Shown here: piece by piece, positions 2 to 32,000 of the stretch | Numbering within the stretch: position 1 is the stretch's first letter | Layout of the letters: each line of letters opens with the position of its first letter | Assembly (NCBI RefSeq): GCF_003945235.1 | Contig: NZ_RSDW01000001.1 | Span: 1,830,001 to 1,862,000 of the forward strand | Direction of reading: 5' to 3' | Origin: Edaphobacter aggregans | GTDB taxonomy: Bacteria > Acidobacteriota > Terriglobia > Terriglobales > Acidobacteriaceae | DNA length: 32,000 nucleotides | Made by a program: the position numbers and the translations under genes | The notes under the pieces: generated by a model | Told to the model about the DNA's origin: nothing | Database searches by the model: none | Seen by the model: the letters and a program-made list of their open reading frames with translations, nothing else

Positions 2-382
2 CAAGGGGTCCGACGATTGGGTGTTGCATCGGAGTTCCACTTCGGCAAGCAAACGCTCTGGCGTCGGAATGCTGCACCCGCGATCGACCGCGCCAAAGTG
101 AACAAGCCGAAGCTAGGCTGGCATTCTCTGCGTCGGTCGTATGCTTCCCTTCTCTTGTCGAGCGGAGCAAGCCTTCGCGCGAGCATGGAGCTGATGCGGC
201 ACTCTACACCAGAGATGATGCTAAGCACCTACGCTCAAGCATCGGCGATGAAAAGTGAGACGCGGGAGAGAAGGTTGCGCTGTTGTGTTGGAAGGCGGGA
301 AAGCTGCCTAGCTGACCCTTATCTGACCCACGCGGCTGAAATCGCCTCTTTCGTGAACCAGATTTTCGAGGAAAACCCTTGA
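2..382 (+). CDS. tyrosine recombinase / phage-type integrase, C-terminal catalytic portion (5' end outside window)
   Basis: Frame is open from the window edge. Translation contains GWHSLRRSYASLLL (H-x-x-R box), LMRHS (His box) and LSTYAQ (catalytic Tyr). Stop TGA 380-382 lies 6 nt from the 3' CCA end of tRNA-Ala. Confidence 0.75.
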   Translation, partial: QGVRRLGVASEFHFGKQTLWRRNAAPAIDRAKVNKPKLGWHSLRRSYASLLLSSGASLRASMELMRHSTPEMMLSTYAQASAMKSETRERRLRCCVGRRESCLADPYLTHAAEIASFVNQIFEENP

Positions 383-834: not shown

Positions 835-1832
835 ACCGGCTCCGCTCGCAACGCTTCCATCTCGCGCTTGCTGCCCACGCAGAACGGCGTGCGCTGATGA
901 ATCCCCTCTGGCTTAATGTCCAGAATCCTGCCAACACCAGTCGTGGCCACTCCACCCGCCTGCTCCGCAATAAACGCCAGCGGATTCGCCTCATACAGCA
1001 GCCGCAACTTGCCCTTCGGCTGCTTCGACGTAGGCGGATACAAAAACACCCCGCCCTTCAGTAGCGTCCGATGAAAGTCCGCGACCAGGCTGCCGATATA
1101 CCGCGAGCTGTACTCCCTACCCAGGCCACCCGTCCGCAACATCTCCAGATACGCGCGATACCCTTCCGGCCAGCTCGCCGCATTCGCCTCATTCACCGAG
1201 TAGTAGCTTCCCTGCTCCGGCATCTGCATCCGCTCGTTGCTCAGCACAAACGCGCCAATCGCAGGATCGAGCGTAAATCCATACACGCCATTGCCCGTCG
1301 TGTAAACCAGCACCGTCGAAGGCCCATACAACACATAGCCCGCCGCAACCTGCCGAAAGCCATGCTGCAAAATCGACTCCTCAAGCGTTCCATGTTCGGG
1401 CGGAAGCCTCCGCAGCACGCTGAAGATCGTGCCCACGTTCACATTCACATCAATATTGCTCGACCCATCCAGCGGATCGAAGACGATGATGTACTTTCCT
1501 GTCTCCGGATCGCGATTGAACGTCACCGGCTCTTCATCCTCTTCGCTCACTAGAGCAGCCACGCTGTCGCGCAATCCAAGGCAGTGCAGCAGCGCCTGAT
1601 TCGCGTACACATCCAGCTTCTGCTGTTGCTCACCCTGAACATTCTCCGCGCCAAACGCGCCCAGCACGTCGATCAGCCCCGCCGAGCGAATCTTCGCCTC
1701 CACCATCTTCGCGGCCAGCGTAATCCCGCTCAGCAACCAGCTGAATGTCCCTGTCGCCTCGCGCCCGGTCGCCTTCAACATGTCCTGCTGCTGTTGCAGA
1801 ATATGCTGTTGCACCGTCGTAATCATCGCCAT
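828..1832 (-). CDS. fbp: fructose-1,6-bisphosphatase class 1
   Basis: Class-1 FBPase motifs: VSEEDEE, FDPLDGSSNIDVNVNVGTIFSV, GKLRLLYEANPLAFIAEQAGG. Start placed at ATG 1830-1832 behind GAAGGTGGA. The ORF-track start at 1913 adds 27 unrelated residues. Confidence 0.92.
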   Translation of the reverse strand: MAMITTVQQHILQQQQDMLKATGREATGTFSWLLSGITLAAKMVEAKIRSAGLIDVLGAFGAENVQGEQQQKLDVYANQALLHCLGLRDSVAALVSEEDEEPVTFNRDPETGKYIIVFDPLDGSSNIDVNVNVGTIFSVLRRLPPEHGTLEESILQHGFRQVAAGYVLYGPSTVLVYTTGNGVYGFTLDPAIGAFVLSNERMQMPEQGSYYSVNEANAASWPEGYRAYLEMLRTGGLGREYSSRYIGSLVADFHRTLLKGGVFLYPPTSKQPKGKLRLLYEANPLAFIAEQAGGVATTGVGRILDIKPEGIHQRTPFCVGSKREMEALRAEPVW

Positions 1833-1945
1833 TGGCAATCCACCTTCATAGGAAATTTTGTCGAGGCTCCAGAATCGAAGCCTACCATCCGTGCGAAATG
1901 GAATCCACTTCACCGATTACCGCCCATTTCGCACCACGCGCACGT

Positions 1946-1957: not shown

Positions 1958-3265
1958 ATGCCATCCAGACGAAGCTTCCTCCTAGCCGCCACCGCAGCAG
2001 CCGCAGCACCGTCACTCTCCCTTCAAGCCCAGCGCCCCTCCACAGCGCCCCCGTCCGACCTCAAGCTCCCCGCGCCAATCGCCGCGCTCACCAGCCGCCG
2101 CTCCGAAGCCGTGCCCATCACCCTCGAAGAGCGCGAGCAGCGCGTCGAACGCGCCCGCCAGCTTCTCGCCGAGCACAAGATCGACGCCCTCGTCATCACC
2201 ACCGGCACCTCGCTCAACTACTTCACCGGTCTGCGTTGGGGCCAGTCCGAGCGCTTCTTCGCCTGGGTCCTCCCCGTCAAAGGAAGTCCCTTCATCGTCA
2301 GCCCCGTCTTCGAAGAAGGCCGCGTCCGCGAGCGCATGGAAGCCAAGCCCGCAACGCTCCCACAAGCGTCCAACACCAAGGTCTACACCTGGAACGAAGA
2401 CGAGAACCCCTACGCTCTCGTCGCCAAAGCACTGAAGGAAGCAGGCATCACCACCGGAAAGATCGGCGTCGAGGAGCGCACCCAGTTCGCCTTCTCCGAC
2501 GGCATCGCCCACGCCAGCCCCACCCTCACCGCTGTCAGCGGAACCCCCATCACCTTCGGCTGCCGCGGCGTCAAAACTCCCGCCGAGCTGGCCCTCATGC
2601 GCCTCGCCAACGACGTCACCTTCAACGTCTACGAAGCCGTCTACAAATCCGCACAGCCCGGCATGACCAACCGCCAGTTCAGCGAGCTCGTCTCCGCCGC
2701 CTACAACCGCGTCGGCTTCCCCGGCGACGCCAGCTGCCAGGTCGCCGAGTACTCTGCCCTGCCCCACGGCTCCCTCCAGCCGCAGGTCATCCGCGAGGGC
2801 CAAATCATCCTCATCGACGACGGCTGCACCGTCGAAGGCTATCAGTCCGACATGTCTCGCACCTTCGTCCTCGGCAAAGCCACCGACAAGCAAAAGAAGG
2901 TCTTCGAGATCGTCCACAAAGCCCAGGCCGCAGCCCTCGCCGCAGCGCATCCCGGTGTGCAGTGTCAGGCCATCGACGCCGCAGCCCGCAAGGTCATCAG
3001 CGATGCAGGCTTCGGCCCCGACTACAAATACTTCAGCCACCGCGTCGGCCACGGCATCGGCATGGACGGCCACGAGTGGCCCTATCTCGTCCGCGGCAAC
3101 ACCACACCGCTCGCCGCCGGCATGACCTTTTCCGACGAGCCCGGCATCTACATCACCGGCGAGTTCGGCGTCCGCCTCGAAGACGACTGGGTCGTCACTC
3201 CCAGCGGCGGAGAGATGTTCACCCCGCAAAGCCCGTCGCTTGAAGACCCCTTCGCCAAAGCCTAA
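1958..3265 (+). CDS. M24-family Xaa-Pro aminopeptidase/dipeptidase with Tat-type signal
   Basis: N-terminus MPSRRSFLLAATAAAAAPSLSLQA (twin-arginine-like). Pita-bread metal-site motifs DDGCTVEGYQSD, HRVGHGIGMDGHEWP, SDEPGIY, VRLEDD. The ORF-track start at 1832 overlaps the divergent fbp start and is unlikely. Confidence 0.88.
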   Translation: MPSRRSFLLAATAAAAAPSLSLQAQRPSTAPPSDLKLPAPIAALTSRRSEAVPITLEEREQRVERARQLLAEHKIDALVITTGTSLNYFTGLRWGQSERFFAWVLPVKGSPFIVSPVFEEGRVRERMEAKPATLPQASNTKVYTWNEDENPYALVAKALKEAGITTGKIGVEERTQFAFSDGIAHASPTLTAVSGTPITFGCRGVKTPAELALMRLANDVTFNVYEAVYKSAQPGMTNRQFSELVSAAYNRVGFPGDASCQVAEYSALPHGSLQPQVIREGQIILIDDGCTVEGYQSDMSRTFVLGKATDKQKKVFEIVHKAQAAALAAAHPGVQCQAIDAAARKVISDAGFGPDYKYFSHRVGHGIGMDGHEWPYLVRGNTTPLAAGMTFSDEPGIYITGEFGVRLEDDWVVTPSGGEMFTPQSPSLEDPFAKA

Positions 3266-3339: not shown

Positions 3340-5418
3340 ATGAATCTCATCGCCCGCCGCCTCCTCCCCATCGCCGGCAGCCTCCTCCTCACCTTCAGCG
3401 TCTCCGCCACAGCCCAAACCGCAGAAAAGACCGCGGCCCCCCTCGCCCACGGCATCGCCATCGCCAACATGGACACCTCCGTCCGGCCCGGCGACGACTT
3501 CTACTCCTTCGCCAACGGCGGCTTCATCGCGCACACCAAGCTTCCCCCCGACCGCGCCACCATCGGCGTCTTCACCGTCCTCTCCGACCTCAGCTCCGAG
3601 CGCACCACCAGCATCATTCAGGACGCCGCTAAAGCGAACGCCGTGCCCGGCACAGACCAGCGCAAGATCGCCGACCTCTACCACTCCTACATGGACGAGG
3701 CTGCCATCGAGACCCACGGCCTCGCCACCCTCAAGCCCCACCTCGCCGAAATCGCCGCGATCAGCTCTCCACAGCAACTCGCCCACGCCCTCGGCCTCTC
3801 CCTCCGCGCCGACGTCGATGCCCTCAACAACACCAACTTCCACACGCCGAACATCTTCGGCCTCTGGGTCGCACCCAGCTTCAACGATCCCGACCACTAC
3901 GCACCCTACCTCCTGCAAGGCGGCCTGCAACTCCCCAACCGCGACTACTATCTCTCCACCTCCCCGCGCATGCAGGAGATCCGCACCAAGTACCAGGCCC
4001 ACATCGCCGCCATGTTCCGCCTCGCTGGCATCTCCGACGCTGAGGCGCGCGCCACCCGTGTCCTCACCCTCGAAACCGCGATAGCCAAGGTCCACATCTC
4101 ACTCGCCGACAGCGAAGACATCCACAAAGCCAACAACCCCTGGACACCCGCCGACTTCTCCACCAACGCCCCCGGACTCAACTGGCCCGAGTTCTTCCGC
4201 GCCGCCGGCCTCGATAAGCAGACGACCTTCATCGTCTGGCAGCCTATTGCCTTCACTGGTGAGGCCGCGCTCGTAAGCTCCCAGCCCATCGACGCCTGGA
4301 AGGACCTGCTCGCCTATCACCTCATCGAGGCCTACGCCGCAGCTTCATCCAAGGCGCTCGCCGACGAAAGCTTCGCCTTCTTCGGTCAGACCCTCTCCGG
4401 CACGCCCCAGCAGCGCCCGCGCGACGTCCGCGGAGCCCGCCTCGTATCCGGCCTGCTCGGCGGTCCCGTAGGCCAGATCTTCGCGCAACAATACTTCTCC
4501 CCCGAGGCCAAAGCCCAGGCAGAAGCCCTCGTCTCCAACCTCATCGCCGCATTCCGCCAGCGCCTCGAGAACCTGACCTGGATGGCCCCCGCCACCAAAG
4601 CCGAAGCCCTCGCCAAACTCGGCACCCTGCAAGTCGGCATCGGCTACCCCGACCACTGGCGCAGTTACGCCGCGCTTGAAGTCACACCCGACAACCTCTT
4701 CCTCAACCTCTGGCGCAGCGATCTCTTCGAATACCACTACGATGTCGGCCGCATCGGAACCACCGTCGACCGCCGCGAGTGGACCATGAACCCGCAAACC
4801 GTCAACGCCGTCAATCTTCCTCTCCACAACGGCCTCAACTTCCCCGCCGCCATCCTGCAACCACCCTTCTTCGATCCCAAGGCCCCCGCCGCAGTGAACT
4901 ACGGAGCCATCGGCACCGTCATCGGCCATGAGATCAGCCACACCTTCGACTCCGAGGGCGCCGCCTTCGACTCCAAAGGCCGTGTCCGCAACTGGTGGAC
5001 ACCCGAAGACCTCGCCCACTTCAACGCCGCTGCCGCCGCACTGGCCGCACAATACGACACCTACAAGGCCTTCCCGGATCTCGCCGTAAACGGTCGCCAA
5101 ACCCTCGGAGAAAACATCGCCGACGTCGCCGGCCTAACCGCCGCATACGATGGCTACCACGCCTCACTGAACGGCAAGCCCGCTCCCATGGACGGCAACT
5201 TCACCGGCGACCAGCAGTTCTTCATAGCCTTCGCACAGAACTGGGGCTCCGTCGTCCGCGACGCCACGCTCCGCCAGCAGATCCTCACCGATCCCCATGC
5301 CCCCGGCCGTTTCCGCGCAGCCACCGTCCGCAACAACGACGCATGGTATCCCGCCTTCGACGTCCAACCCACCGACAAGCTCTACATCGCCCCCAAGGAT
5401 CGCGTTCAACTCTGGTAG
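3340..5418 (+). CDS. M13-family zinc endopeptidase (PepO / endothelin-converting-enzyme-like), secreted
   Basis: HEISHTFD (HExxH) and ENIADVAGL (ExxxD) zinc site, NAVNLP, about 690 aa. N-terminal signal peptide MNLIARRLLPIAGSLLLTFSVSATAQ. GGAG lies 9 nt upstream. Confidence 0.92.
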   Translation: MNLIARRLLPIAGSLLLTFSVSATAQTAEKTAAPLAHGIAIANMDTSVRPGDDFYSFANGGFIAHTKLPPDRATIGVFTVLSDLSSERTTSIIQDAAKANAVPGTDQRKIADLYHSYMDEAAIETHGLATLKPHLAEIAAISSPQQLAHALGLSLRADVDALNNTNFHTPNIFGLWVAPSFNDPDHYAPYLLQGGLQLPNRDYYLSTSPRMQEIRTKYQAHIAAMFRLAGISDAEARATRVLTLETAIAKVHISLADSEDIHKANNPWTPADFSTNAPGLNWPEFFRAAGLDKQTTFIVWQPIAFTGEAALVSSQPIDAWKDLLAYHLIEAYAAASSKALADESFAFFGQTLSGTPQQRPRDVRGARLVSGLLGGPVGQIFAQQYFSPEAKAQAEALVSNLIAAFRQRLENLTWMAPATKAEALAKLGTLQVGIGYPDHWRSYAALEVTPDNLFLNLWRSDLFEYHYDVGRIGTTVDRREWTMNPQTVNAVNLPLHNGLNFPAAILQPPFFDPKAPAAVNYGAIGTVIGHEISHTFDSEGAAFDSKGRVRNWWTPEDLAHFNAAAAALAAQYDTYKAFPDLAVNGRQTLGENIADVAGLTAAYDGYHASLNGKPAPMDGNFTGDQQFFIAFAQNWGSVVRDATLRQQILTDPHAPGRFRAATVRNNDAWYPAFDVQPTDKLYIAPKDRVQLW

Positions 5419-29911: not shown

Positions 29912-30022
29912 TAAACTCTCACTATCTATTTGAAATAAATAGCCTTAATACCCAGAATCCCTGTAATCCCCGCCTACCCAGTACCAACAAGGGAAAGGCC
30001 CCGTTTCTCCACAATCTCTCTC

Positions 30023-30051
30023 TTGACTCCATGTGAATTTCCCGTTATCTT
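30023..30051 (+). promoter_or_regulatory. near-consensus sigma-70-type promoter TTGACT-17 nt-TATCTT
   Basis: TTGACT 30023-30028, 17-nt spacer, TATCTT 30046-30051. No protein gene follows on this strand before a terminator. Confidence 0.45.
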
Positions 30052-30056
30052 AGATG

Positions 30057-30168
30057 AGTGGCAAGACTCCCTTCGGGTTGAGTCGGTCATAACGAAGTCC
30101 ACCCACTTCGTTGCTTTACTGGAACACCCACGCAACAGCCCCCACCGCGCTGCGTGGGTTTCCATTTT
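30057..30168 (+). ncRNA. candidate small RNA of about 110 nt (three hairpins, the last an intrinsic terminator)
   Basis: Hairpin 1: GACUCCC-UUCG-GG(UU)GAGUC, 30065-30084. Hairpin 2: AACGAAGU-CCACCC-ACUUCGUU, 30091-30112. Hairpin 3: ACCCACGCA (30126-30134) / UGCGUGGGU (30151-30159) followed by UUUCCAUUUU. The 5' end is inferred from the promoter only. Confidence 0.4.
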
Positions 30169-30180
30169 AAGGCGAATTAT

Positions 30181-30690
30181 TCACGCCATCCTCTGATTGT
30201 GAGGCAGTTCGAGCACCACGCGTGCAGTCTCCGCCCCAAACACCGGCAGACCAACGTCCGTCAGCAACCCAATCTGCTTAAGCACCGAAGCCTGGTCCCA
30301 ATAGACACGCTCGTGCGCCAGTTTGCCATCGCGGAACCGCACAATCGCCACCAGCGGTACCTCCACATGGCGGCCCGTCGGAGCAATACCCGGCAGAATC
30401 CACGGCATCTCCACCGTGTGGGTAAACGAGATCACCATCTCGTCCACCAGCTGATCTTCCCCAACCGTTCGAGACACATCGGTCAGTGTAAAGTCAGGCG
30501 GCATGCACGGTAAAAAGTCCTTGCCGTAGAACACTCGCAACTCACTCTTGCCTCTGCCGCCGGTCATCACCGGAACGTGGTTGACATACGCATCCGCTGC
30601 CATCGTGGACAGTGTGGCCTCCACATCAGGAGTCGCGAACTCATACTTCGTGTGCTCGTCCCAAAGCTTTTCGAGGTCATACCGTTTCAT
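30181..30690 (-). CDS. NTF2-like / SnoaL-like family protein
   Basis: 169 aa. The HTKYEF...VNHVP..TGG.G...FY ... RFRDGKLAHERVYWDQASVLKQIGLL pattern is typical of SnoaL_2/NTF2-fold proteins (from memory). TAGAAT (30697-30702 on +) lies 6 nt upstream of the ATG, with no SD. Confidence 0.6.
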   Translation of the reverse strand: MKRYDLEKLWDEHTKYEFATPDVEATLSTMAADAYVNHVPVMTGGRGKSELRVFYGKDFLPCMPPDFTLTDVSRTVGEDQLVDEMVISFTHTVEMPWILPGIAPTGRHVEVPLVAIVRFRDGKLAHERVYWDQASVLKQIGLLTDVGLPVFGAETARVVLELPHNQRMA

Positions 30691-30716
30691 GCGGGCATTC
30701 TACGCCCCATCCCGAC

Positions 30717-30745
30717 TTGACGCCGCCGCCCAAACCCTCTAACCT
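30717..30745 (+). promoter_or_regulatory. putative promoter TTGACG-17 nt-TAACCT placed to start transcription at the sORF ATG
   Basis: TTGACG 30717-30722, 17-nt spacer, TAACCT 30740-30745, then 6 nt (TTTCCC) to ATG 30752. Its -35 overlaps the divergent SnoaL-like upstream region. Confidence 0.4.
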
Positions 30746-30751
30746 TTTCCC

Positions 30752-30838
30752 ATGGGATTGATGCGCATCGCAGCCTGTACTTGTTGCCTTTGTTGTAAGG
30801 GCACTTGTTGCTGCTGCGTTGGACTCTCCCTCACCTAA
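30752..30838 (+). CDS. 28-codon polycysteine sORF MGLMRIAACTCCLCCKGTCCCCVGLSLT (candidate leader peptide)
   Basis: Translated by hand; too short for the ORF track. It has 9 Cys codons (5 TGT, 4 TGC), no SD, TAA at 30836-30838, and a terminator 35 nt downstream. Confidence 0.5.
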   Translation: MGLMRIAACTCCLCCKGTCCCCVGLSLT

Positions 30839-30872
30839 GCGAACCGAACCAATTCGGCCTTAGAGGATCTCA

Positions 30873-30917
30873 GGAACCCACGTATCAGCGCTAGCCGCGA
30901 ACGTGGGTTTTCTTTTT
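30873..30917 (+). terminator. intrinsic terminator / attenuator hairpin
   Basis: GG-AACCCACGT (30875-30883), 17-nt loop, ACGTGGGTT (30901-30909), then TTCTTTTTG. Confidence 0.65.
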
Positions 30918-30957
30918 GCCCCAACACCAACTCAAACATTCGGAATCAAGGAGCCAC

Positions 30958-31080
30958 ATGGCACCCCTCCACAACGGCAAAACAGCAAGCCGCATCAACG
31001 TCGACCTCATCGCCGTAGCCATCGCCCTCACCCTGGCTGCGCTCATCCGTTTCAACGTCATCCCTCCGATCTCCTTCTAG
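30958..31080 (+). CDS. 40-aa single-TM small protein MAPLHNGKTASRINVDLIAVAIALTLAALIRFNVIPPISF
   Basis: Consensus SD AAGGAG 5 nt upstream of the ATG, a hydrophobic helix, and codon third positions GC-rich like the neighbouring genes. Ends 13 nt before the transporter start. Confidence 0.55.
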   Translation: MAPLHNGKTASRINVDLIAVAIALTLAALIRFNVIPPISF

Positions 31081-31093
31081 CAAACAGAGAGAA

Positions 31094-32000
31094 ATGTCCG
31101 CCGCCCACACCATCACGACACCGATCGCCATCCCGGCACCATCGCCCGCGACCCGCCTCGCGCGCGCGCTCCCCGGCATCGGCCTTCTCTTCGGTATCGG
31201 CTTCCTGGGCAAGTTCCTCGAACACACCTTCACTCAACTCCGCACCGCCCACCCGGGCATCCCTTTCCCTCACCTCGAATACGTCCTCTGGGCCATCGTC
31301 CTCGGCCTCGCCATCGGCAACGTCTTCGGTGTAGCCGAAATCTTCCGTCCGGGCATAGCCACCTACGAGCTCTGGCTCAAACTAGGCATCGTCCTCGTAG
31401 GCGCCCGCTTCCTCTTGCAGGACATCCTCCACATCGGGGGCCTATCCCTCGCCCTTGTAGCCGTCGAGCTCATCCTCTCCCTCAGCGTGATGCACCTGCT
31501 AGGCCGCATCTTCAAGCTCCCACCCAAGCTCACGTCTTTGCTCGCCATTGGCTCCAGCATCTGCGGAGTCACCGCCATCATGGCCGCCCAGGGAGCCATC
31601 GAGCCCGAAGAAGAAGACACCAGCACTGCCATCGCCGCCATCCTCACCCTCGGAGCCATCGCCCTCTTCACCTTCCCCGCCATCGGCCACGCTCTCCACA
31701 TGAGCCAGCAGGGCTTCGGCATGTGGGCCGGCCTTGCCGTCGACAACACCGCCGAGTCCCTTGTCACCGGCTCGCTCTTCGGCGAAGAAGCCGGTCGCTG
31801 GACCGTCCTCGCCAAGACCGCCCGCTCCGGCTTCATCGGCTTCGTCGTCCTCGCCTACGCCGTCTACTGGTCCTCGCGCGGCCTCGCCCCCGACGTCGAG
31901 CACAAGGGCGTCTTCCTCTGGCGTAAATTCCCCAAGTTCATCCTCGGTTTCATCGCGCTCTCCATCCTCGCCACCAGCGGATTCTTCACCCACACCCAAC
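31094..32000 (+). CDS. UPF0324 / YeiH-family membrane protein ('putative sulfate exporter family transporter'), 3' end outside window
   Basis: Open frame from ATG 31094 to the window end, translated by hand and absent from the ORF track because it has no stop. Multi-TM sequence with LLAIGSSICGVTAIMAAQGAI and GMWAGLAVDNTAESLV regions matching my memory of the family. Confidence 0.75.
   Translation, partial: MSAAHTITTPIAIPAPSPATRLARALPGIGLLFGIGFLGKFLEHTFTQLRTAHPGIPFPHLEYVLWAIVLGLAIGNVFGVAEIFRPGIATYELWLKLGIVLVGARFLLQDILHIGGLSLALVAVELILSLSVMHLLGRIFKLPPKLTSLLAIGSSICGVTAIMAAQGAIEPEEEDTSTAIAAILTLGAIALFTFPAIGHALHMSQQGFGMWAGLAVDNTAESLVTGSLFGEEAGRWTVLAKTARSGFIGFVVLAYAVYWSSRGLAPDVEHKGVFLWRKFPKFILGFIALSILATSGFFTHTQ

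Follow-up and report, generated by a model that had tools for sequence, protein, structure and literature searches.

We analysed a stretch of 32,000 nucleotides (nt) from Edaphobacter aggregans (NCBI RefSeq assembly GCF_003945235.1, contig NZ_RSDW01000001.1, positions 1,830,001 to 1,862,000 of the forward strand), referred to below as the window and numbered from its first letter. Towards its end, a polycysteine short open reading frame (sORF) and an intrinsic terminator precede the genes of a small transmembrane (TM) protein and of a transporter of the YeiH family. An earlier interpretation made from the letters alone (the sequence-only reading) had taken this arrangement for a cysteine-responsive attenuator, and the comparative evidence described here supports that as the probable explanation. 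The sORF occupies positions 30752-30838 of the + strand and consists of 28 codons (MGLMRIAACTCCLCCKGTCCCCVGLSLT) closed by a TAA stop at 30836-30838. As had been claimed, the reading frame opened by the ATG at 30752 contains nine Cys codons in two clusters (codons 9, 11, 12, 14, 15 and codons 19-22), five of them TGT and four TGC; the runs are CC, CC and CCCC, that is, at least two consecutive Cys codons are present. Cluster 1 (30776-30796, + strand; codons 9-15, C-T-C-C-L-C-C) comprises the proposed sensor codons. Cysteine makes up 32% of the codons of the sORF, compared with ~0.8% across the open reading frames (ORFs) of the window. An enrichment of the rarer codon TGT had also been put forward; the TGC:TGT ratio of 10:1 in pckG holds, but over the long ORFs of the window the ratio is 52:17, against which the TGT excess in the sORF (5/9) is only marginal (p ~0.05 by our own binomial estimate), and the argument is weak when taken alone. 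No entry of the protein collection searched has exactly this peptide sequence, and the sORF is therefore unannotated.

The same leader recurs widely among the Acidobacteriaceae. A scan with the YeiH fragment encoded in the window, restricted to one genome per species, yielded 61 Acidobacteriaceae loci, including those of Edaphobacter, Terriglobus and Granulicella, and a metagenome scan with YeiH, in which soil metagenomes were represented, added 80 further loci. At 42 of ~58 genome loci, and likewise at 38 of 78 metagenome loci, a Cys-rich sORF precedes yeiH by 200-450 nt in the same orientation. A six-frame reading of 388 kb of related DNA gave 78 short ORFs with CCC or with five or more Cys, of which 42 occupy exactly this position relative to yeiH. 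The architecture seen in the window is common to 57 distinct leaders, denoted type A, from Edaphobacter, Terriglobus, Granulicella and soil metagenomes. The occurrence of a Cys-run sORF and a terminator upstream of YeiH orthologues is conserved across genera of the Acidobacteriaceae and in soil metagenomes, as expected from the sequence-only reading.

More distant loci carry a second kind of leader, denoted type B (L034, L035, L037, L039, L041, L045, L055, L061, L098, L101 and L122), located ~200-250 nt upstream of yeiH. Here TTGCAa-17-TAAAGT forms the promoter, and a leaderless-looking sORF of ~22 codons, starting with GTG 7 nt further on, ends in ...SACCC(C)R-stop; this Cys run is the only part held in common with type A. 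A hairpin, AACAGGC/GCCUGUU, overlaps the first Cys codon, and the small TM ORF and yeiH come next. Type B may represent a translational or Rho-dependent variant.

Promoter-like hexamers directly precede the sORF of the window. The -35 hexamer TTGACG (30717-30722, + strand) is followed after 17 nt by the -10 hexamer TAACCT (of the form TAnnnT; 30740-30745, + strand), which ends 6 nt (TTTCCC) before the ATG. This geometry, together with the lack of a Shine-Dalgarno (SD) sequence, had been recognized in the sequence-only reading and is borne out by the homologous leaders: the order TTGAC[G/T/A], 17/18 nt, TAnnnT, 6-10 nt and ATG is found in 56 of the 57 distinct type A leaders. The spacer between the two hexamers measures 17 nt in 53 leaders and 18 nt in three, and the spacer sequences are unrelated. 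An SD-like motif, looked for at most 16 nt upstream of the sORF ATG, was found in none of the 57 leaders. A simple sigma-70 scan of the window does not report the leader promoter, the -10 hexamer of which matches at only 3/6 positions; we accept it because its geometry is conserved in nearly all homologous leaders. The conserved hexamers are taken as the phylogenetic footprint of a promoter with a predicted transcription start site (TSS) on, or a few nucleotides before, the start codon.

The intrinsic terminator downstream of the sORF (30873-30917, + strand) is formed in both the minimum free energy (MFE) and the centroid fold. It consists of a stem, GGAACCCACGU / ACGUGGGUUUU, in which 30873-30883 pair with 30901-30911, an inner helix and a U-tract, UUUUCUUUUU, that ends at 30917; the energy of the hairpin is ~ -20 kcal/mol. 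The sequence-only reading had predicted such a structure after the stop codon, and its core stem AACCCACGU (30875) indeed begins 36 nt past the stop. All 57 type A leaders possess CCCACG...CGTGGG(T/C)TT 63-90 nt past the sORF stop. The stem also covaries in our alignment A3 of 57 sequences, with which alignment A1 of 30 sequences gives the same picture: the terminator cells are 88% paired in A3 and 88-91% over the two alignments, with compensatory pairs such as UA (32) / CG (22) and AU (43) / GC (10) in A3.

Two further hairpins shape the leader. H1 (30754-30830, + strand), which corresponds to the pairing of regions 1 and 2, lies inside the sORF and is seen in the MFE fold and by covariation. 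In it, CGCAGC (30769-30774) forms a helix with the GCUGCG of Cys cluster 2, and at its base the start-codon region (GGGA) pairs with UCCC near the end of the sORF; the H1 cells are 79-84% paired, and both sides change in six of nine outer pairs. H2 (30831-30867, + strand), identified in the MFE fold, holds the sORF stop codon in its 5′ arm (CUAAG/CUUAG), and both sides change in eight of its nine pairs. For the whole structure of terminator, H1 and H2, none of 500 shuffles attained the observed covariation score or percentage paired. Rfam covariance models returned nothing relevant at E<=10 in 30300-31400; at the gathering score, the only match in the whole window was a tRNA gene (392-464, - strand), and no His, Leu, Thr, Trp or Phe leader was found.

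The pattern of selection on the sORF was examined in 21 Edaphobacter-type leaders. The Cys codons are near-invariant, including their synonymous position: TGT occupies codons 11, 14 and 15 in 21/21 leaders and codon 19 in 20/21, codon 12 always encodes Cys, and codons 20-22 are nearly always TGC. At the non-Cys codons, chemically unlike residues interchange (L/S/K, R/H/N/Y, L/P, K/M/I and T/N/S). Codon position 2 shows a greater mean entropy (0.45) than codon position 3 (0.39), which is the reverse of what ordinary protein-coding selection produces and, in these alignments, is not the pattern of a conserved protein. Almost all indels keep the frame, which is retained through indels of 3 and 6 nt, and the stop codon stays within the 5′ arm of H2. 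Because the Cys codons are frozen, the other codons are free, the frame is kept and type B shares only the Cys run, these observations favour a regulatory leader peptide, in which the Cys codons, their position and the RNA would matter and not a conserved protein sequence.

The first structural gene of the downstream operon encodes a 40-amino-acid (aa) single-TM protein (MAPLHNGKTASRINVDLIAVAIALTLAALIRFNVIPPISF; 30958-31080, + strand) and is preceded by the SD sequence AAGGAG (30948-30953, + strand); nearly all leaders show an SD-like motif before the homologous small ORF. The small TM protein always precedes yeiH, at type A and type B loci alike, and the family comprises proteins of 37-56 aa with the C-terminal signature ...R[FL]..[IV]...I[SGP][FW]. 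The protein of the window has an identical entry from Edaphobacter aggregans, RSL16048.1 / WP_260472733.1, which is annotated only as hypothetical, and it matches no Pfam or NCBIfam family; it may be an accessory subunit. The transporter gene of the YeiH family (PF03601 / UPF0324; Cons_hypoth698) begins at 31094 on the + strand and runs past the end of the window at 32000, its product being 366 aa long in close relatives. The assignment of a YeiH-type gene behind the TM ORF and its AAGGAG, made in the sequence-only reading, stands: the fragment matches PF03601 with E=7.4e-61 (206 bits; gathering cut-off 24.5), and a full-length relative does so with 7e-73 (245.6 bits). Against NCBIfam TIGR00698 the fragment, truncated by the window end, scores 104 bits, which is under the cut-off of 232.6. 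In the gap between the terminator and the following ORF (median ~50 nt), a search confined to the consensus TTG[AC][CA]N-16..18-TAnnnT found no instance in the 57 leaders, and the sigma-70 scan of the window reported no promoter between the terminator and the small TM ORF. With no motif in either search, we set aside a separate promoter for the small-TM/yeiH genes. A gene coding for a CarboxypepD_reg domain and an outer-membrane beta-barrel of the TonB-dependent-receptor type comes after yeiH, in the same orientation, at ~26 of 28 type A genome loci.

In Salmonella, yeiH is induced by sulfite through the regulator YeiE and is the chief determinant of sulfite resistance (Westerman et al. 2026, PMC12880088); an Escherichia coli yeiH mutant grows poorly with glutathione (PMC12880088). 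Among the ORFs inspected beside yeiH in the acidobacterial loci, none was a LysR regulator.

The leader of the window contains the elements of a putative transcriptional switch. Region 2, the putative switch strand (30810-30826, + strand; GCUGCUGCGUUGGACUC), comprises Cys cluster 2 and the codons that follow it, and is complementary both to region 1 and to region 3, the 5′ arm of the terminator (30873-30889, + strand), which is its alternative partner. The layout is trp-like, with the pairings 1:2 / 2:3 / 3:4. When a ribosome footprint was imposed on cluster 1 and the 3′ arm was left untranscribed, region 2 paired with the 5′ arm in the MFE structure, with H2 nested inside the antiterminator. 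The constrained folds predict the same pairing for 47 of the 57 leaders; the gain averages -7.2 kcal/mol. Of all segments of the sORF, the second Cys cluster pairs best with the 5′ arm of the terminator in ~52 of 61 leaders, and the core antiterminator helix is 82% paired compared with 26-38% for slid controls. These folds are consistent with a ribosome-dependent antiterminator.

The explanation that we consider probable, given the comparative evidence, is a leaderless, ribosome-mediated transcription attenuator that would sense charged tRNA-Cys and control the small-TM/yeiH genes. In the scheme that we infer, transcription would start at, or a few nucleotides from, A30752, the mRNA would open with the AUG of the sORF, and a 70S ribosome would load at this leaderless AUG. 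With ample Cys-tRNA, it would cross both Cys clusters and reach the stop codon at 30836; region 2 would then be covered or re-paired with region 1, the terminator would form, and RNA polymerase would halt ahead of the small membrane ORF and yeiH. Under a shortage of Cys-tRNA, the ribosome would stall in cluster 1 (codons 9-15) and hide region 1; the freed region 2 would pair with the terminator 5′ arm around H2 and block the terminator, and transcription would proceed into the small-TM/yeiH operon, probably up to the downstream outer-membrane receptor gene.

A number of observations weigh against such an attenuator. In folds with ribosome footprints, as envisaged in the sequence-only reading, the antiterminator is obtained in 47/57 leaders without the 3′ arm, but the terminator wins in every full-length thermodynamic fold, and any switch must therefore be kinetic, as it is in trp. 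For the window, the antiterminator gain amounts to only -2.0 kcal/mol. Since the two strands of the antiterminator helix hardly vary, its covariation is not significant, and 145 of 500 shuffles attained the score. According to the model, a ribosome stalled in cluster 2 would mask region 2 and thereby promote termination, so that the four codons of this cluster have an ambiguous role. The invariance of CCCACG / CGTGGG exceeds what a plain terminator needs and hints at an additional factor, and no intrinsic terminator follows the Cys sORF of type B. Finally, YeiH has no part in cysteine biosynthesis; the phenotype known for it is sulfite resistance. Induction of YeiH upon Cys starvation would fit the uptake of a sulfur source together with the outer-membrane protein (OMP); it would equally suit a sulfite safety valve during derepressed assimilation, or an indirect sensing of sulfite or thiol stress via the cysteine pool.

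The conserved cysteines could also be valued for the peptide itself. The nine residues form the patterns CxCC / CCxCC / CCCC, in a metallothionein-like manner only Cys is conserved, a strong terminator stands directly downstream of the sORF, and leader peptides that act in trans are known (peTrpL). The sORF might then be a genuine gene for a Cys-rich metal-, redox- or membrane-associated micropeptide with its own promoter and terminator, and leaky read-through would do no more than sustain the transporter genes at a low level of expression. We consider this improbable. The greater variability of codon position 2 than of position 3 and the frozen synonymous Cys sites argue for selection at the RNA level, the terminator arm has its complement among the Cys codons, and the peptide is hydrophobic, unlike metallothioneins. 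Distant relatives keep ~22 aa of which only the C-terminal CCC(C)R is shared, neighbouring genes are preceded by polyCys sORFs of unrelated sequence (see below), and the downstream genes lack a promoter-like motif of their own. About as improbable is an explanation that retains the anatomy of the attenuator and changes the signal: translation of the sORF would control the terminator in response to sulfite, reactive sulfur, oxidants or thiol-reactive compounds, either via lowered Cys-tRNA charging or via the nascent poly-thiol peptide, and the leader would stand in for the enterobacterial YeiE. The sulfite induction of Salmonella yeiH and its role in resistance, as well as the absence of a LysR regulator beside yeiH in the loci examined, are consistent with this proposal. 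There is, however, no known precedent for a nascent poly-Cys peptide that senses small molecules, and a run of a single codon type is read most simply as a sensor of tRNA charging; the sequence fits either reading.

Strong conservation at the nucleotide level and conserved hairpins might instead reflect a purely RNA element, be it a riboswitch, a protein-binding leader or a small RNA (sRNA) of ~165 nt ending at the terminator, with the ORF being incidental; the invariant CCCACG / CGTGGG arms, which also occur in a neighbouring candidate sRNA, could then be bound by a common factor. That the distance between ATG and promoter is fixed in 57/57 leaders, that the frame and the Cys codons survive indels of 3 and 6 nt while the stop remains fixed within H2, that Rfam gives no match, and that type B has only the Cys-run ORF and not the RNA sequence in common render this very unlikely. 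We give next to no weight to the possibility that the true coding feature is an antisense poly-glutamine ORF (30739-30834, - strand; MRESPTQQQQVPLQQRQQVQAAMRINPMGKG) upstream of a divergent SnoaL-like gene. The TGC/TGT runs do read as CAG/CAA on the other strand, the frame is open, and synonymous changes of the Cys codons are also synonymous for Gln. Its GTG start (CAC on the + strand, 30832-30834) is nevertheless replaced in relatives by CGC, CTC, TTG or TAG, many relatives (L001, L010, L013, L014 and L016) have no SnoaL gene between the conserved upstream block and the sORF while the linkage of sORF and yeiH persists, the promoter and the terminator face the + strand, and the antisense frame of type B is without a start. 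As neither its start nor its SnoaL neighbour is conserved, this ORF was rejected.

Polycysteine leaderless sORFs have been described in mycobacteria, where they form a 'Cys ribulon' and act translationally (Canestrari et al. 2020, bioRxiv 10.1101/834739 / Mol Microbiol 114:93); in Actinobacteria, Cys leader peptides without terminators have been predicted (PMC1262725). The sequence-only reading had cited the mycobacterial sORFs as a precedent, which holds for the polycysteine sORF with its predicted leaderless start but not for the mechanism. Like those of mycobacteria, the acidobacterial sORFs are unannotated, look leaderless, contain Cys runs, stand at the head of a sulfur- or cysteine-linked operon and occur at several loci per genome, and ribosome stalling at Cys codons is the proposed signal. 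The mycobacterial polyCys tract, however, pairs with the SD sequence of the next gene and involves no terminator, whereas the acidobacterial leader has a terminator with a U-tract. The SD sequence at 30948-30953 pairs only locally, with no predicted pairing to the Cys tract, which itself pairs within the sORF or with the terminator arm. SD sequestration of the mycobacterial type is thus not predicted here, and the likeness lies in what would be sensed and not in the mechanistic class. The targets differ as well, being of the cysK/cysE/cysA2 type in mycobacteria and a YeiH-family transporter here, in another phylum and without sequence homology.

The predicted cysS attenuators with Cys-containing upstream ORFs are closer in design than the mycobacterial sORFs. 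The uORFC-8-2 of cysS in Rhodobacterales (Brewer et al. 2021, PMC8632094) is likewise a predicted attenuator whose Cys codons lie in a stem, with an intrinsic terminator behind it; its tandem Cys codons number only two, and the motif is alphaproteobacterial, targets cysteinyl-tRNA synthetase, is not described as leaderless and is itself a prediction. The cysS leader of Deinococcus deserti (de Groot et al. 2014, PMC4007540) is also leaderless, with Cys codons and predicted transcription attenuation, but its TSS has been mapped experimentally, where ours is predicted, and it is 10 aa long with two Cys instead of nine and cysS as its target. The trp, his, leu, thr and phe attenuators of Proteobacteria (Yanofsky model) have the same four-region design with regulatory codons in region 1, and differ in their SD start, the amino acids sensed and the biosynthetic operons controlled. 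Relative to them, the acidobacterial leader has an additional conserved hairpin, H2, enclosed by the antiterminator, and its region 2 contains another block of regulatory codons. Salmonella yeiH belongs to the same PF03601 family and is likewise under dedicated sulfur-related regulation, there exerted by YeiE, a sulfite-binding LysR protein, and not by a cis-acting leader (PMC12880088).

No description of such a leader in Acidobacteriota or for the YeiH family was found in the literature searched, in agreement with the novelty claimed in the sequence-only reading. Acidobacteriota are abundant in soil, and their gene regulation is almost unstudied. Within the searched literature, the phylum would gain with this element its first leader-peptide attenuator as well as its first leaderless regulatory sORF backed by evidence. 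The element would tie the widespread, poorly understood YeiH/UPF0324 family to cysteine status by an independent route, provide a hypothesis on the purpose of the transporter, and provide an example of terminator-based attenuation operating from a leaderless start with unusually dense sensor codons. Approximately 90 unannotated sORFs of this kind have been missed by annotation pipelines.

Further polyCys sORFs occur around the locus. At ~14 type A loci, a second one (...RCCCR-stop), the start of which overlaps the yeiH stop (ATGA), stands ahead of the OMP gene (L010:4092-4139, L014:4092-4190, L017:4092-4181, L024:4101-4145, L028:4059-4112 and ~10 more loci). In the lineage of the window, this post-yeiH sORF has degenerated to ...CRCRR/H-stop, and a 49-aa single-TM ORF overlaps the yeiH stop instead; both lie beyond the window end and were located in relatives (L142:2824-2973 and 3119-3187; L001:4098-4248 and ~4440-4461). 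Another leaderless-looking Cys sORF, TTGACT-17-TATAAA-6-ATG with the sequence MPLNSTAKTCCLYPCIQDRGRVRCCFYR and its own terminator, is found at L044:5163-5249 and L046:5235-5321, two loci of one Terriglobales metagenome-assembled genome; the L044 copy precedes another CarboxypepD_reg OMP gene. Cys-run leaders are, it appears, used repeatedly around the yeiH locus. A polyCys ORF elsewhere in the window (1780-1851, + strand; MSCCCCRICCCTVVIIAIGNPPS) was rejected as an artefact, being the antisense of QQHILQQQQ in a fructose-1,6-bisphosphatase-like (fbp-like) gene at 828-1913 on the - strand.

The candidate sRNA mentioned above extends over 30052-30168 (+ strand; gene region 30022-30172) and comprises a promoter, CTTGACT-17-TATCTT, three hairpins and a terminator, ACCCACGCAACAGC...GCUGCGUGGGUUU. 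Its predicted fold has an energy of -46.8 kcal/mol (z -3.8), and it has no Rfam match. About 100 nt are near-invariant in 32 related loci with variable flanks, and in most relatives the candidate lies 50-110 nt upstream of the promoter of the polyCys leader. The module CCCACG...CGTGGG occurs twice in the 32-kb window, in the terminators of the attenuator and of the candidate sRNA, compared with an expectation of 0.08. For the window, a trans pairing of the candidate sRNA with the 3′ arm of the attenuator terminator is predicted at -17.4 kcal/mol; as other leaders retain no more than its GUGGG core, we do not rely on this pairing. The common module may reflect a common origin, a shared factor or a trans interaction.

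A possible, though rather unlikely, extension of the attenuator would be an acidobacterial 'Cys ribulon', in which unrelated leaderless Cys-run sORFs place the YeiH-family transporter and adjacent OMPs of the TonB-dependent type under the control of tRNA-Cys charging. Such sORFs would stand before the small-TM/yeiH genes, overlap the yeiH stop before the OMP gene and precede the second OMP gene; the candidate sRNA with its CCCACG...CGUGGGUUU module may act on, or derive from, the same switch. If true, this would recast the present branch of YeiH / 'sulfate exporter' proteins as a cysteine-starvation-induced system for sulfur acquisition or as a sulfite safety valve.

Between the candidate sRNA and the leader promoter, the window carries the SnoaL-like gene (PF07366/PF12680; 30181-30690, - strand), which is likewise present at L002, L003 and L142-144. 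From its absence in the five relatives listed above, in which the sORF remains linked to yeiH, this gene is therefore regarded as a lineage-specific insertion outside the system.

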